Assembly: GCF_049243625.1 (NCBI RefSeq)
Contig: NZ_CP046975.1
Direction: 5' to 3' (one strand)
Source of the DNA: Corynebacterium amycolatum
GTDB lineage: Bacteria; Actinomycetota; Actinomycetes; Mycobacteriales; Mycobacteriaceae
Length of the DNA stretch: 32,000 nt
Shown: in pieces, positions 1,234 to 29,072 of the stretch
How the letters are laid out: each line of letters starts with the position of its first letter
Numbering within the stretch: position 1 is the stretch's first letter
The notes under the pieces: generated by a model
Told to the model about the DNA's origin: nothing
What the model saw: the letters and a program-made list of their open reading frames with translations, nothing else
Database searches by the model: none
Program-made: the position numbers and the translations under genes

Positions 1234-2178
1234 GTGGGACGTGCCGCAGGCAATCGCGATGCCTGGTGGGGACTTGAGAAGAACCGTCAGGCAGCGCAAG
1301 TCGATGCCGCCGCTCACGAGCGCGAGGAGTACATCCCCTTTGAGCCGGCAATTGTGGCCGACACTGATGAGTTTTTGGTCGTAGACAAGCCACCTTTTCT
1401 GCCAGCGACCCCCAATGGCCGCATCGTGGCCAATACCGTGCAGGAGCGCCTGCGACGTAGTCTCGGGGAATCGGAGATTGTGGCCGTTCACCGCCTGGAC
1501 CTGCTGACCAGCGGGCTCCTGTTGCTCTCTCGGAATCCGGCTACCCGTGCGCGCTACCAGCAGCTTTTCCAAAACCAGGAAATCACCAAAGAATACGAAT
1601 GCCTCACCGTGATGCCCGATGATTGGCATGCGGGAGAAAGCAGGGAAGTCACACTCCTGCTCGACCCCAACCCGGCAGAGCACGGAGTAAAAGTTGTGGA
1701 GACCAATGATCCCGCACGCGCCGCTGCGAAGAATCCCAAGCTCAAGCTCGCACACACAACAGTGACCTTCCTAGGTCCGGTAGCGGCGGATATCGGCGAT
1801 GTGCTGGCGAGCAGCCGTGGCGGTGGTGCGACCAGCGCCAGCATTCCGCTGCATGCAGTCGGCTGTGGTTGCGGGCATTGCGGCAGCCGCATGCAGGTAG
1901 GGCACTGGCGGCTACAGCCCCATACGGGCCGCACACATCAGCTGCGGGCGACGATGGACTGGCTAGGCTATCCCATTCTCGGTGAGGACACGTATGGCCG
2001 AGAGGTTAGGACGCAGGAGCCGTCGGCAAGCGCGGGCAGCGCGCCAAGGTACACGCCGCAGTTGCGCCTGACGGCGACCGCATTGGCGTTCATCGACCCC
2101 GTCACTGGTGAGCGATGTGCCTACCGGAGCGCGCGGAATATTTCGGCCCCGGCAGACGTGCCGACCACCGTTAGTTAG
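1234..2178 (+). CDS. RluA-family pseudouridine synthase
   Basis: Catalytic-Asp motif [15 protein letters not shown] and HTGRTHQLR motif. GTG start 7 nt after AAGGGGA. Confidence 0.7.
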
Positions 2179-3142
2179 CGTGCAGCTCGGCGCTGAGCTT
2201 CACCTTTTCGGCAGCCCACGGCACAACCTCGACTGCACCAGAGAGTGAATTGCGGCGGAAGAGCATATTCGATCCGCCCGAAAGCTCGCGGGCCTTGAGC
2301 GTCTTCTTCACGCCGTCCAGGGCAACGTGACACTTGGTGCCGGCGGTGATGTAGAGCCCGGCTTCCAGTACGCAGTCATCGCCGAGCGAGATGCCGAGTC
2401 CAGCGTTCGCACCGAGTAGGCATCGCTTGCCGACGGACACAACTTCCTTACCTCCGCCGGATAGTGTGCCCATGATGGACGCTCCACCGCCGATATCGGA
2501 GCCGTCGTCGACGATGACGCCCTGGGAGATACGGCCTTCCACCATGGAGTGTCCAAGCGTGCCTGCGTTGAAGTTGACGAAGCCCTCGTGCATAACTGTG
2601 GTGCCCTCAGCGAGGTGGGCTCCAAGGCGCACGCGGTCAGCGTCACCGATGCGGACTCCGGTGGGAGTGACGTAGTCGACCATGCGGGGGAATTTATCGA
2701 TGGAGTAGACGGTGACAGGCCCGCGGCGTGACAGCTTGGCTCGGGTTACCTCGAAGCCTTCGACAGCACAGGGGCCAAAATTGGTCCACGCCACATTGTT
2801 GAGCTTGCCGAAGATACCGTCCAGGTTGATGCTGTTGGGCACAACCAGGCGGTGGGAGAGCAGATGGAGGCGCAGGTAGGCATCGATGGTGTCGACTGGT
2901 GCGTCATCGAGTGAAGCGATGGTAGCTGTGACCAGACGGCGTGTGGTACCGCGGTCCGCATCGGCTACGGCCAGGTCTGCGAGGTAGGTGAAATCTTCGG
3001 GGAGCGCGTCGGTGTCAATGGTTCCGGTCGTGGTGGAGGTTGCCGTGCCCTCTTCGATGAGCTTGGGGGCGGGGAACCAGACGTCGAGAACAGTATCGTT
3101 GTTAAAAGTGGCAATGCCGGTAGCTTGTGCTCCAAATTTCAT
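2171..3142 (-). CDS. dapD: Tetrahydrodipicolinate N-succinyltransferase
   Basis: 323 aa. N-terminus [28 protein letters not shown] plus a C-terminal left-handed beta-helix hexapeptide region, typical of actinobacterial DapD. dap cluster context. Confidence 0.85.
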
Positions 3143-4785: not shown

Positions 4786-5778
4786 TTATCCGGCCAGCTC
4801 ATCCGGCACGTCGGCAAGCTGAGTGAAAGTAGCGGCACCTTCGTCATTGCCCGGGCGTTCCGTGCGGCGGACGCACACCGCCGAGTGGTCCGGGTGATGG
4901 TAGAAGTGCATATTGTTGCGGCCGGAGATTTCCCATGCCTGAATACGGCGGTTCTCTGCGGGGACATCGATGGGCGTATCGGGGGCAATGAGGATGCTTC
5001 GGTCAATAATGCAGTCATTACCGAGGCTGACGCCGACGGTGCCGGCCGCGATATCGATGTGGCAGCGCTCGCCAACCGTGAGCGGCTTACGCTGACCGGA
5101 ATCGTCGTGAGCGGCAATGATGGAGGCCGACAGCCCCACCTTCGTGTGCGCGCCAATGACAACACCGGAGGATAGACGTCCCTCAATCTTGCATGGGCCC
5201 AGAGTGCCCGAGTTCAGCGAGACAAATCCCTCGCGCAGTACTGACGTACCCGGTGCCAGATAAGCGCCCAACCGCACGCGCTCGGCCTCTGCAATGCGGA
5301 CACCTGCGGGCAGCACATAGTCGACCATGCGCGGCATACGGTCGATGGCGTAGACGTGAATCAGGCCGCGGACGCGCAAGTGGGTACGCAGTTGCTCGAA
5401 GTTGTCCGGCAGGCATGGCCCCTTGTTGGTCCACGCCACGACGTGGAGCAGCTCGTAGAGCCCCTTGGTGTTTAGCTGGTGCGGCTTGACCAGGCGGTGG
5501 GAGAGCAAATGCAGGCGCAGGTAGGCATCGTGCGGGTCGACAGCCGGCTTGGACAAATCCTCAATGGACGTGCGCACTGCCACCTGCTCCACGCGGCGAT
5601 CCTCGTCCAAAATCACCTGACGAAGCAGCTGTGGGGTCAAATCAGCGGCGCCGAGCCGGTGAGTGCTCGACTCTACGACCTCATCGCTTAACTGAGGTGC
5701 GGGAAACCAAGTATCGAGAACTGTACCGTCCATTGCGATGTTGGCGATTCCCGTAGCGACAGCACCAGATGTAATCAT
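4786..5778 (-). CDS. dapD2: DapD paralog (tetrahydrodipicolinate N-succinyltransferase-like)
   Basis: 330 aa, colinear with the dapD product: [42 protein letters not shown], then hexapeptide repeats. Clearly divergent in the C-terminal third. Confidence 0.7.
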   Translation of the reverse strand: MITSGAVATGIANIAMDGTVLDTWFPAPQLSDEVVESSTHRLGAADLTPQLLRQVILDEDRRVEQVAVRTSIEDLSKPAVDPHDAYLRLHLLSHRLVKPHQLNTKGLYELLHVVAWTNKGPCLPDNFEQLRTHLRVRGLIHVYAIDRMPRMVDYVLPAGVRIAEAERVRLGAYLAPGTSVLREGFVSLNSGTLGPCKIEGRLSSGVVIGAHTKVGLSASIIAAHDDSGQRKPLTVGERCHIDIAAGTVGVSLGNDCIIDRSILIAPDTPIDVPAENRRIQAWEISGRNNMHFYHHPDHSAVCVRRTERPGNDEGAATFTQLADVPDELAG

Positions 5779-9871: not shown

Positions 9872-10039
9872 ATGGCAGCAATGAAGCCGCGTACCGGTGA
9901 TGGTCCGCTGGAGGCAGTTAAAGAGGGCAAGAAGATTGTGATGCGCGTCCCCGCAGATGGTGGTGGGCGCCTGGTGGTGGAACTCTCCCCAGAGGAGGCC
10001 AAGGAGCTCGGCGCAGAGCTCGTAGCAGTAGTGGAGTAG
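9872..10039 (+). CDS. DUF3117-family small conserved actinobacterial protein (55 aa)
   Basis: Hand translation: MAAMKPRTGDGPLEAVKEGKKIVMRVPADGGGRLVVELSPEEAKELGAELVAVVE*. The N-terminus MAAMKPRTGDGPLE and the GGGRLVVEL core are what I remember as the DUF3117 hallmark. AAGGAG RBS 5 nt upstream. A strong terminator follows. Below the ORF-track length cutoff. Confidence 0.7.
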   Translation: MAAMKPRTGDGPLEAVKEGKKIVMRVPADGGGRLVVELSPEEAKELGAELVAVVE

Positions 10040-10091
10040 TGGATACCCGGGTAGCGGGGTAGCGGCCGGGCTTGTCCGGTTTTGCCCCAGG

Positions 10092-10131
10092 GGCGACCTA
10101 CACAAGTGGTGTAGGTCGCCTTTTCTTTTTT
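10092..10131 (+). terminator. Intrinsic terminator of the DUF3117 gene
   Basis: Perfect 12-bp stem GGCGACCTACAC-aagtg-GTGTAGGTCGCC followed by TTTTCTTTTTT. Confidence 0.85.
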
Positions 10132-10175: not shown

Positions 10176-10267
10176 GGCTGCACATGTGAAACTGTGCGAG
10201 TTTATGACACTTTGAAGCCGTCTTTCGGACCATTTTTGTCATAAACGCAGTCAGTAACTCGCATTGG
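10176..10267 (+). repeat. Interspersed imperfect-palindromic repeat, copy A
   Basis: ggctgcacATGTGAAACTGTGCGAGTTTATGACA...(28-nt T-rich centre)...TGTCATAAACGCAGTCAGTAACTCGCATTGg. Both arms are identical to copy C. An extra partial arm gagttacttggctgag follows at 10267-10282. Confidence 0.85.
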
Positions 10268-16364: not shown

Positions 16365-16391
16365 CCTGTCAAAGCCGGCTCAGGCTGCAAG

Positions 16392-16427
16392 AAGGCACGT
16401 ACCGTGGGGTACGTGCCTTTTTCTTTT
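16392..16427 (+). terminator. Intrinsic terminator of glgC
   Basis: Perfect 12-bp stem AAGGCACGTACC-gtgg-GGTACGTGCCTT followed by TTTCTTTT. Confidence 0.85.
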
Positions 16428-16483
16428 AAGCTTTTTGCTGCTTAGTTGCTACCTAGCCCCAAAACTGGCAATCCCAAAAATGT

Positions 16484-16654
16484 GGGCTGCACGTGGGGCT
16501 ACGGGCTGCAAAAGTGAAACTGTGCGAGTTTATGACACTTTCAGGCCACTTTTTTGGTTCATTTCTGACATAAACGCGGCCAGTAACTCGCATTGGCCCG
16601 AGGCCGCCAGCCATAAACGCAGTCAGTAACTCGCATTGGCGGGAGGCCGCCAGC
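16484..16654 (+). repeat. Interspersed imperfect-palindromic repeat, copy B, with duplicated ends
   Basis: The canonical unit spans 16503-16611. The left tip gggctgcacgtg is duplicated at 16484-16495. The 43-bp right end is tandemly duplicated (16569-16611 and 16612-16654). Confidence 0.85.
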
Positions 16655-16675
16655 CAGCCGGCCAACAGTAGAAAA

Positions 16676-20036: not shown

Positions 20037-20621
20037 GTGTTTTCTAATGTTGGCTGGGGCGAGATTCTCGTCCTCTTTATCCTCGGACTAATTCTCATCG
20101 GACCTGAGCGGTTGCCGAAGGTAATTGAGGACATCCGCGCATTGCTTCTGGCTGCGCGCACCGCAATCAATGACGCACGCGATAACCTCTCGGATGAGTT
20201 CGGTGAAGACTTCGACGATCTTCGCAAGCCGCTGCAGGAGCTCAACGATCTCCGTCGTCTCAACCCGAAGACCGCCATCACCAGGACGCTTTTCGACGGC
20301 GATGACACCTACCTGGACATGCTCTCCGGTAAGCCCGCAGCGGGTGGCGGCGGAACTGGTGCAACCGGAGCTGCAGGAGCCGGTGGATCCTCTGGAGTAG
20401 CTGGTGCGGCTGGAGCAACTGGTGCCGCAGGCCAGCAGTACCAGCAATCCAACAAGAGCCAGCCAGTGCAACCGGCTCCGTCGCAGCAGCCGGTCCCGCA
20501 GTCGGCTCAGCAGCCAGGAACGTGGCAGGATCCAGTTGCCCAGGCCCGCCAACAGCAGGCACAGCAAACACCACAGCAGCCCCGTGGGGTGCAGGCCTGG
20601 GTCGACGACGACAACCTATAG
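20037..20621 (+). CDS. tatB: Twin-arginine translocase subunit TatB
   Basis: [29 protein letters not shown]-terminus. G/A/Q-rich low-complexity tail. Confidence 0.85.
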
Positions 20622-20643: not shown

Positions 20644-20729
20644 GCAAGTTACTGACCAGGGTTATGACACTTTGAGCACAAATTTTGCCACGAAACTGTC
20701 ATAAACCTAGTCAGTAAGTGCACGCAGCC
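20644..20729 (+). repeat. Interspersed palindromic repeat, divergent symmetric copy D
   Basis: GCAAGTTACTGACCAGGGTTATGACA-(28 nt)-TGTCATAAACCTAGTCAGTAAGTGCAC. The arms pair over about 21 positions with 2 mismatches. Shares TTATGACACTTTGA and TGTCATAAAC..AGTCAGTAA with copies A-C. Confidence 0.7.
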
Positions 20730-24904: not shown

Positions 24905-24990
24905 CCGGGGCGGCGGGGCTAGTTGCGGCGGTATCTGACGCGTATCCGCTGTTGGCTGCTGCTGTGTTTGTCTATTCGCCCTTGAATGCC

Positions 24991-25080
24991 GGCTGCAAAT
25001 GTGAAACTGTGCGAGTTTATGACATTTTCATGCCATTTTTCAGGTCATTTTGTCATAAACGCAGTCAGTAACTCGCATTG
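24991..25080 (+). repeat. Interspersed imperfect-palindromic repeat, copy C
   Basis: ggctgcaaATGTGAAACTGTGCGAGTTTATGACA...TGTCATAAACGCAGTCAGTAACTCGCATTG. Arms identical to copy A. The centre differs by several substitutions and indels. Confidence 0.85.
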
Positions 25081-25186
25081 AGGACTAAGTAGTAAATGGT
25101 GCCGACCCGGTAACACGCCGACCGGACACGCATTCTGTCTATTAACCCTTATCTACTGTGCGTCTGACAATTGCTAGACAACGACT

Positions 25187-25218
25187 AAGGGGCTCCAACC
25201 GAGTGGTTGGAGCCCCTT
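25187..25218. terminator. Perfect 14-bp hairpin between the convergent lipoprotein gene and odhA
   Basis: AAGGGGCTCCAACC-gagt-GGTTGGAGCCCCTT. No clear U tract on either strand, so possibly a bidirectional I-shaped terminator. Confidence 0.5.
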
Positions 25219-25230
25219 AGCGTTTGATCA

Positions 25231-25282
25231 CCAGTGAAGACCACCAGTGAAGACCGCCAGTGAAGACCACCTGGTGAAGCGG
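25231..25282. repeat. 13-bp tandem repeat x4 (CCAGTGAAGACCR)
   Basis: ccagtgaagacca / ccagtgaagaccg / ccagtgaagacca / cctggtgaagcgg. Lies 40 nt beyond the odhA stop codon. Confidence 0.85.
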
Positions 25283-29017: not shown

Positions 29018-29072
29018 GTTTTACTAACTCACGTTTATTCTAATGAGCGCAAGCGTCAAAGTGTCATTCAAG
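29018..29072 (-). repeat. Degenerate copy E of the interspersed repeat (minus orientation)
   Basis: The minus strand reads ccttgAATGACACTTTGAcgc...AATAAACGtgAGTtAGTAAaac. Compare the consensus tTATGACACTTTGAagc...CATAAACGcAGTcAGTAACtc. Sits in the 103-bp gap between the ABC gene stop and the odhA start. Confidence 0.5.

Follow-up and report, generated by a model that had tools for sequence, protein, structure and literature searches.

A Palindromic Intergenic Repeat of the Corynebacterium amycolatum Complex Is a Preferred Insertion Site of an IS30-Family Element

F1 copies in the window

The window, that is, the whole stretch of DNA analyzed here, comprises 32,000 nt of Corynebacterium amycolatum (assembly GCF_049243625.1, contig NZ_CP046975.1; coordinates are counted from its first letter) and represents a Corynebacterium chromosomal core region with a GC content of 59.6%. 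It contains dispersed copies of a 91-nt palindromic intergenic unit, which we name F1: full copies at sites A, B, and C and a divergent, symmetric copy at site D. Copy A (10176-10266, plus strand) consists of a left arm, GGCTGCACATGTGAAACTGTGCGAGTTTATGACA, a 27-nt T-rich center, and a right arm, TGTCATAAACGCAGTCAGTAACTCGCATTG, with exact arm matches and an nhmmer E value of 2.2e-30. Copy B (16504-16595, plus strand; E = 2.1e-29) has a TGACAT variant of the right arm and is followed by an extra right arm at 16610-16638 (plus strand; E = 3.6e-6), and copy C occupies 24991-25080 (plus strand; E = 7.7e-29). The left-arm sequence GTGAAACTGTGCGAGTTTATGACA occurs exactly three times in the window (10186, 16514, and 25001), and the right-arm sequence CATAAACGCAGTCAGTAACTCGCATTG occurs four times with at most 2 mismatches (10240, 16569, 16612, and 25054), while the dinucleotide-shuffled window gave 0 matches to either pattern. 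The F1 repeat is therefore real and far above chance, and the three full copies sharing two arms that a preliminary description, made from the sequence alone, had claimed are borne out.

The same description had called the arms of the 10-kb and 25-kb copies identical, which they are (100% in the comparison), but the unit reaches 8 to 10 nt further left (GGCTGCA[A/C]) than it had been drawn. The centers do vary between copies, by substitutions and a 1-nt indel. The symmetric divergent copy D, at 20644-20727 and assigned to neither strand, is composed of GCAAGTTACTGACCAGGGTTATGACA, a center, and TGTCATAAACCTAGTCAGTAAGTGCA, and the profile recovers it on the two strands with E = 6e-6 and 8e-6. 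A fifth, decayed copy had been proposed on the minus strand at 29018-29072; it is unsupported (E = 0.54), and the stretch, which lies just upstream of odhA, is near-invariant among orthologues and has only two short F1-like stretches.

All window copies are intergenic in a codon-usage gene model, as had been stated. A terminator-like hairpin with a T-run (10089-10123, plus strand; 15-bp stem with 8 GC pairs) lies downstream of a 55-amino-acid (aa) open reading frame (ORF; 9872-10039) and 52 nt upstream of copy A, and another terminator-like hairpin, read from the sequence, precedes copy B at 16388-16430. The placement of A and B downstream of terminators in the preliminary description was thus correct.

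Anatomy of F1

A metagenome collection was scanned with a left-arm pattern; the F1 counts from the fetched loci (about 1 Mb, with loci numbered as in L129) are among the matches listed and so are lower bounds. The 63 distinct copies have a mean column identity of 91% and a length of 90 to 92 nt and give the 91-nt consensus GGCTGCAAATGTGAAACTGTGCGAGTTTATGACA - CTTTCAGGCCATTTTTCGGGCCATTTT - TGTCATAAACGCAGTCAGTAACTCGCATTG. Two conserved arms of about 30 nt each enclose a T-rich center of 27 nt, which is built of two tandem 12-mers, CAGGCCATTTTT and CGGGCCATTTTT, and almost every left border follows (T/A)ACG. Imperfect inverted repeats run over the whole length of the unit (ATGTGA/TCGCAT, ACTG/CAGT, and GTTTATGACA/TGTCATAAAC), and complementarity is missing from the outermost 10 to 15 nt of the two arms (GGCTGCAAATGTGAA and CAATGCGAGT). 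Either strand folds into a long hairpin with bulges (z = -2.0 to -2.7 for A and C); the predicted pairing is between the two arms, neither of which forms a hairpin by itself. These folds confirm, for each unit, the inverted complements and the bulged hairpin previously read from the letters. In copy D, both arms are of the "long" form, and the palindrome is better (z = -4.8 and -5.9).

No consensus outward promoter or terminator was found inside F1 or at its borders. We rejected the possibility that F1 is a small-peptide gene, since the sole recurrent ORF, a 20-aa minus-strand frame without ATG in 27 of the 63 distinct copies, is frameshifted in others; the earlier view that no ORF is conserved across copies holds.

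An IS30-family insertion sequence in the F1 center

Many partial F1 matches stop in the center and continue into a 26-bp terminal inverted repeat, GGTAGG(G/T)TCAGGCGGT(C/G)A(T/A)TGCATCA, of an insertion sequence (IS). The IS is 1432 bp long (L129:533-1964) and encodes a 468-aa transposase with the Pfam domains HTH_38 (7e-15) and rve (DDE; 1e-10) and extra N-terminal helix-turn-helix (HTH) matches; its homologues and cluster members, including WP_258867012.1 of Corynebacterium amycolatum, are named IS30 family transposase. By its domains, its terminal repeats with a short target duplication, and its preference for a palindromic target, the element belongs to the IS30 family.

In the fetched DNA, 17 of 19 IS ends abut an F1 or D-type center. 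The insertion point lies after the GGYC of the first or second 12-mer (TTTCRGGYC/ATTTT), in either orientation, and the target duplications are 3 to 4 bp long (ACC, GGCC, GGC, and GTG across the IS and its relatives). Counting all samples, the IS occupies at least 12 distinct F1 sites, with junctions at L036, L043, L054, L056, L067, L077, L079, L108, L125-L127, L148, and L149. Five occupied sites are intact in other samples, namely, sites B, C, and D of the window and the sites of L024 and L010, indicating that the IS inserted repeatedly after the strains had diverged. Site B (16504-16595) is occupied in GCA_900461385.1 (locus L149) and site C (24991-25080) in L129; at site D (20644-20727), the IS interrupts L002/L014, L031, and L073, and an IS-end remnant is present in SK46.

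Since the loci had been picked for F1, IS copies fetched via the protein alone were used as an ascertainment control. Both such copies (2/2) lie inside F1 centers, with the duplications ACC (TTTTTCGGGT-IS-GGTCATTTTT, F1 strand) and GGCC. Together, these data show that the F1 center is a preferred insertion site of an IS30-family element. In addition, an otherwise intact F1 at about 4928-5020 of L100 contains in its center GGTAGGTTCAGGC, the 13 nt with which the IS terminal repeat begins; this fragment may be the scar of an IS that was later lost.

Relatives of the IS were found in comparable places. One that is 86% identical occupies, in another lineage, a D-type F1 that has diverged (L174), one that is 61% identical lies between perfect 12-bp arms with a center of about 27 nt (L173), a 484-aa relative from a 70%-GC organism (P0112; identity not reported) lies between perfect 24-bp arms (L147:2900-4586), and an Actinomyces relative lies between inverted GAGATCGGGACATCCTGAC arms (L175:240-1960). 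Across these relatives (86%, 61%, and about 45% identity, plus the 484-aa one), the arms measure 12 to 24 bp and the duplications are GGC, GTG, CAG, and GGC(C), which suggests that insertion into the center of a palindrome is a general habit of this IS30 subgroup.

A mosaic with a second palindromic family and tandem subunits

Next to copy C, at 25083-25148 (plus strand), lies a palindromic repeat of about 66 nt (GGACTAAGTAGTAAATGGTGCC...GGACACGCATTCTGTCTATTAACCC; iterated nhmmer E = 7.7e-18) that belongs to a second palindromic family. This family 2 has arms GGGYTAAGTAGCAAA / TTTGCTACTTARCCC and the form GGGYTAAGTAGCAAA...GGTGCC...GGACACRCTTTTTGCTACTTAACCC. Most of its 30 matches in the fetched DNA abut F1 (e.g., L020:2438-2499, L027:4942-5006, and L087:937-1002), either against the F1 right end or upstream of F1, on one or both sides. 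At L039 and L095, F1 is truncated by family 2.

Site B is a longer array. Its upstream modules (16430-16484, plus strand) are family-2 end half-copies, GCTTTTTGCTGCTTAG and TTGCTACCTAGCCCC, followed by the linker AAAACTGGCAATCCCAAAAATGTG, and the order of family-2 end, AAAACTGRCAACCCRAAAAAYTWCG linker, and F1 is repeated at independent sites. Directly ahead of copy B lies a tandem left-edge unit, GGCTGCACGTGGGGCTACG (16485-16503, plus strand), in which about the first 19 nt of F1 are partly duplicated. Many F1 copies are preceded by such units (ACGGGCTGCACAYRTGAAT, about 19 nt, containing the palindrome CACATGTG), one to three in number, as in L023 (3330-3380), L020, L019, and L009 (1030-1050). 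On the right side, the right arm and a GC-rich spacer form a 43-nt tandem repeat of 2.0 copies at 16569-16656 (plus strand; Tandem Repeats Finder score 148, 91% matches), and the number of 43-nt units at site B is 1 in SK46 and 1285_CVIT, 2 in the window, and 3 in L115. The recurrent module order is a family-2 unit, linker, left-edge units, F1, (spacer + right arm)n, and a family-2 unit. F1 arrays thus combine palindromic units and additional short motifs, whose order recurs and whose number varies, as in a bacterial interspersed mosaic element (BIME). Neither this mosaic nor the targeting of F1 by an IS figured in the preliminary description. At site C, an imperfect direct repeat has its upstream member, TTTGTCTATTCGCCCTTGAATGC, at 24967-24989 (plus strand) and its partner at 25134-25152, the end of the family-2 unit; the pair brackets a segment absent from SK46.

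One fetched locus, L123 (764-846), joins the left flank of another F1 site (L042/L052/L104) to the right flank of site B. This junction in a metagenome contig stems either from recombination between copies or from a chimeric assembly at the repeat.

Distribution and genomic context

A strict right-arm pattern was scanned against one genome for each of 185,579 species. It matched 8 times in C. amycolatum SK46, 7 times in an assembly labelled "C. vitaeruminis 1285_CVIT," and 7 times in one uncultured Corynebacterium metagenome-assembled genome. The remaining six matches were unrelated and at chance level, and nhmmer found one marginal partial match (E = 8e-4) but no F1 copy among them. Among the 185,579 species representatives, F1 was found only in the C. 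amycolatum complex, to which it appears to be restricted. The window is collinear with SK46 at 92 to 96% identity and with 1285_CVIT at about 90 to 93% identity. The species label of 1285_CVIT (NZ_JVVM01...; L002, L004, L011, L012, L014, L025, and L026), which carries the same repeats, looks doubtful.

The fetched loci contain at least 82 full F1 copies, which, clustered by their flanks, correspond to at least about 32 independent genomic sites. Because the strict right-arm pattern gives about 7 matches per genome and catches about 30% of the sites ascertained by the left arm, we estimate some 20 to 30 F1 sites per genome. For a genome that we take to be about 2.5 Mb, the window, with three full copies and one divergent copy in 15 kb, is about 10 times denser than average; the earlier assumption that this density is typical and that the genome carries correspondingly many copies must be dropped. 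A blastn search of a plasmid collection gave no F1 match. In viral contigs, the left-arm pattern matched 0 times, and none of 23 chance matches to a looser right-arm pattern was upheld by nhmmer. F1 matched no Rfam family at the gathering score, and at E values up to 5 only chance-level matches appeared, in line with the supposed absence of F1 from Rfam. In the literature searched, neither F1 arm is printed, and papers on repeats of C. amycolatum or of Corynebacterium do not describe it; we found no previous description of the family there.

None of the predicted genes overlaps any of the 32 F1 sites. Of 25 scorable sites, 12 lie in convergent, 10 in codirectional, and 3 in divergent gaps. The preliminary description had found no copy in a divergent gap, which is true of the window but not of the family as a whole. 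Few divergent and many convergent gaps are the usual pattern for tolerated selfish repeats. In codirectional gaps, the orientation of F1 (6 versus 4) is unrelated to the direction of the neighbors, and relative to the GC skew it shows no bias (14 of 29 sites positive). The flanking genes, recognized by eye, are presumably unrelated housekeeping genes with no common theme. Two other assignments were tried and rejected: a parS or replication-polar site, for which the left arm offers only half-site resemblance and GC-skew polarity is lacking, and an integron attC-like site, excluded on inspection because the GTT...AAC motifs of F1 point inward instead of outward and are not spaced as in a cassette.

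Inheritance and constraint

F1 copies are stably kept at their sites. At the position orthologous to copy A, F1 is present in 5 other genomes or metagenome contigs, and at that of copy B it is present in SK46, 1285_CVIT, and contigs L073, L074, and L115 (the nominal site-B cluster also contains the different site L042/L052/L104 and the chimera L123). Copy C is kept in 7 of 8 orthologous loci and is absent only in SK46. Strains that have diverged from the window by 7 to 17% at four-fold degenerate sites still carry the orthologous copies. In SK46, the gap at site C comprises 168 nt (F1 plus the family-2 unit) and is bracketed by an imperfect 22-nt direct repeat of family 2. This is the only empty site found, and we read it as a deletion because strains more distant than SK46 have the site filled. 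Otherwise, the sites showed only length variants and no further filled/empty polymorphisms, and no target-site duplication was seen at the F1 borders in 22 aligned copies with flanks.

Relative to the four-fold rate in the same strain pairs, which are not phylogenetically independent, divergence is 0.34 for the left arm, 0.46 for the right arm, and 1.39 for the center. When only arms that had not been used for fetching are counted, the left arm shows 8 observed versus 21.7 expected changes (~0.37) and the right arm 21 versus 40.2 (~0.52). Even with this ascertainment control, the rate of the F1 arms is about half the synonymous rate or lower, and that of the center equals or exceeds it.

Genes and other repeats of the window

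By Pfam, the genes of the window include two dapD-like genes, a dapE-like M20 peptidase gene, and a pterin-binding folP-like gene; a GT4 glycosyltransferase gene, glgC, an O-methyltransferase gene, a gene for a Mrp/ParA-type ATPase, and corA; and genes for an extracytoplasmic function (ECF) sigma factor with its anti-sigma factor, an HtrA-like protease, a fused E1/E2 odhA product, and an ABC transporter. Tetrahydrodipicolinate N-succinyltransferase-like genes occur as two paralogs, at 2171-3142 and 4786-5778 on the minus strand, with an amino acid permease gene between them; a 116-nt stretch is 72% identical in the two.

The window also contains two simple tandem repeats. A 13-nt repeat, CACCAGTGAAGAC, of 3.3 copies (25229-25271) is placed between the stop codon of odhA and the terminator hairpin of that gene (25187-25219) and is shorter in SK46 and 1285_CVIT. 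A 9-nt repeat, CTGGAGCAG, of about 7 copies (20356-20422) lies within an ORF (20037-20621) whose protein has a Q-rich tail and no Pfam match; near its 3' end, this ORF has an extra 27 nt (CAGCAGCCGCAACAACCGCAACAACCT) in SK46 and 1285_CVIT.

Origin and role of F1

F1 is clade restricted, modular, intergenic, and stably inherited, with conserved arms and a fast-evolving center. We consider it fairly probable that F1 is a clade-specific, noncoding palindromic repeat resembling repetitive extragenic palindromic (REP) sequences, REP doublets forming hairpins (REPINs), or BIMEs, which was formerly amplified and today serves as a hot spot for an IS; most likely it is leftover selfish DNA. In such a history, some agent would have amplified F1 in the ancestor of the C. 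amycolatum complex, with the REPIN model fitting the architecture best, and nearly all copies would now be vertically inherited at fixed intergenic sites. Copies seem to prefer gaps with gene 3' ends, where insertions would be least harmful. Evolution in place has involved tandem duplication of subunits (the 19-nt unit of the left edge and the 43-nt unit with the right arm), juxtaposition with family 2, and occasional deletion between flanking repeats. The only demonstrable present-day molecular role is that of a specific target of the 1.43-kb IS30-family IS, whose transposase may recognize the palindromic arms, and the slow divergence of the arms could reflect protein binding or homogenization among copies.

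Several observations weigh against this picture. In situ, the arms change at less than half the synonymous rate, which is unexpected for dead selfish DNA and leaves room for a host function. Pooled arm conservation is inflated by the fetching of loci with arm patterns. No mobilizing enzyme was found in the fetched loci. No target-site duplication and no clean filled/empty polymorphism was found, and the lone empty site is better read as a deletion, so that it is the dispersed near-identical copies that speak for past mobility. Twenty to 30 copies per genome is low for REP/REPIN-type families, and metagenome contigs can be chimeric at repeats.

The main rival, which we regard as unlikely, takes F1 as a host-functional DNA site whose arms bind a sequence-specific regulator or nucleoid-associated protein, with the center as a fixed spacer and the IS as incidental. 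The contrast between arms (about 0.4 to 0.5 times the four-fold rate) and center (1.4 times) among orthologues, the near-invariant length of 90 to 92 nt in 63 distinct copies, and the stable retention of positions across the species complex all speak for it, as does a promoter-like site of the next gene about 20 nt downstream of copy A. However, the flanking genes, as identified by eye, share no common theme, about half of the sites lie between convergent genes with no promoter to regulate, common variants break the symmetry of the arms (TGTCAT/TGACAT, and CGCAT/CGGAT in 27 of 63 copies), and natural strains lose a copy (SK46) or have a copy split by the IS. It seems improbable to us that F1 is a REPIN proper, mobilized as a single-stranded hairpin by a single-copy REP-associated tyrosine transposase (RAYT; Y1/HUH) encoded elsewhere. 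Enzymes of the IS200/IS605 type use short target motifs, of which the (T/A)ACG before the left border is reminiscent. The conserved inverted ends, the looser spacer of fixed length, the hairpin, the extragenic location, the vertical persistence, and the lack of target-site duplication also agree with REPINs as portrayed in PMC3116915. Yet the F1 arms have no short REP palindrome of their own and pair with each other instead, the copy number is low, and phmmer found no Y1-transposase-like ORF in about 1 Mb of fetched loci, a weak screen given an approximate IS200 TnpA query and genomes that were only sampled.

A structured RNA (a small RNA or a 3'-untranslated-region stabilizer or processing site), with the hairpin selected as RNA, is more improbable still. 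In its favor, the plus-strand hairpin has a folding energy of -27 to -31 kcal/mol (z about -2 to -2.3), three G-U pairs on the plus strand would be A-C mismatches on the opposite strand, and one pair shows AU-to-GC double changes in 4 sequences, with the statistic "cells with a change on both sides" reached by only 1 of 500 shuffles. Over the 24-pair hairpin, however, 3 pairs are changed on both sides versus 1.6 expected, a value reached by 103 of 500 shuffles; the very pair with the AU-to-GC changes is an A-A mismatch in the main stem of 28 of 63 copies, and two outer-helix pairs are broken in 25 to 27 of 63. The GC compensations may only mark one subfamily, the borders lack a promoter or terminator, A and B stand after terminators, the orientation relative to neighboring genes is unbiased, and Rfam has no match. 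The structured-RNA role raised in the preliminary description thus finds only marginal covariation across copies. Least credible of all is that F1 is a classical miniature inverted-repeat transposable element (MITE), derived by deletion from the IS30-family IS that it contains or from some other DDE IS, as its small size, inverted arms, multicopy intergenic occurrence, and physical association with an IS might suggest. The best local alignment of F1 with the 1432-bp IS scores 16, below the shuffled mean of 18.9. Its own 26-bp inverted repeats and the 3 to 4 bp that it duplicates of an intact center show that the IS inserted into a preexisting F1. Together with the absence of target-site duplication at the F1 borders and the noncomplementary outermost 10 to 15 nt of the arms, this score contradicts F1 as a MITE of this IS. 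The assignment of F1 to interspersed, noncoding palindromic families of the ERIC/REP/BOX/MITE kind therefore stands as to kind but fails for MITEs in the strict sense.

Returning to F1 as a formerly amplified repeat that now attracts an IS, we put forward a broader and decidedly tentative idea. A clade of long (458- to 485-aa) actinobacterial IS30-family transposases, to which the present one and perhaps that of ISCg2 would belong, might read both arms of long dispersed palindromes and integrate at a fixed central place. F1-like families would then be genome-wide "safe landing pads," with arms conserved through protein recognition and coevolving with the IS.

Implications

F1 provides a defined small-repeat family for a genus without a described one in the literature searched, in a host that is emerging as an opportunistic pathogen. 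The repeat accounts for contig breaks in C. amycolatum assemblies and for their polymorphism in intergenic length, and both the variable number of 43-nt units and the IS occupancy of known F1 sites may serve as strain-typing markers. Furthermore, with many near-identical targets, two insertion points in each, and strain-polymorphic insertions, F1 and its IS form a natural system for studying how an IS30-family element chooses a harmless target. If the arms are indeed the recognition element, they could be used for site-directed integration in corynebacteria.

Comparison with known repeat systems

By kind, F1 belongs with the REP/REPIN/BIME/ERIC-type repeats. ERIC/IRU, Correia (CREE), BOX, and RUP elements are noncoding, palindromic or modular intergenic repeats of about 100 to 150 nt, each confined to one bacterial group. 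They are not known to resemble F1 in sequence and live in other hosts, and F1 has neither the TA duplication nor the 26-bp terminal repeat of Correia elements. BIMEs of Escherichia coli are mosaics of palindromic units, and the IS3-family elements IS1397 and ISKpn1 insert in the central part of the palindrome. F1 resembles them in being a mosaic of recurrent order with an IS specific for the palindrome center, but its IS is of the IS30 rather than the IS3 family, no sequence relation is known, and the F1 unit is longer (91 nt), with a 27-nt center.

According to their description in Pseudomonas and enterobacteria (Bertels and Rainey 2011, PMC3116915), REPINs fold as long hairpins whose inverted ends are conserved and whose spacer, constant in length, is less so; REPIN/REP elements further share with F1 an extragenic location, a lack of target-site duplication, vertical inheritance with persistence in a lineage, and higher-order arrangements. 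They differ from F1, whose arms lack the REP palindrome, whose copies number about 20 to 30 rather than hundreds, whose host is actinobacterial, and for which no RAYT was found in a weak screen.

As for the insertion sequence, the F1-targeting transposase is longer than that of IS30 (458 to 468 aa, with the extra N-terminal HTH), and its duplication is 3 to 4 bp versus 2. The hot spot of IS30 is said to be 24 bp. IS30 itself prefers nearly palindromic hot spots (Olasz et al. 1998, summarized in PMC9333248), as does the IS in F1, but its hot spot is short, whereas F1 is a dispersed repeat of 91 nt with arms of about 30 nt and a targeted center. Another possible counterpart is ISCg2 of Corynebacterium glutamicum; no genome of that species was matched by the strict F1 arm pattern. 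The ISCg2 target reportedly extends over about 90 bp around a 3-bp duplication; if so, it would have the same size and geometry as F1. ISCg2 is an IS30-family element according to PMC8715038, and a 1999 paper (Quast et al.), as listed in PMC13577085, has its preference for "conserved target sequences" in the title. The relation between F1 and its IS, the most useful lead of this analysis, parallels that of IS1397 to BIMEs and probably that of ISCg2 to its target in C. glutamicum.

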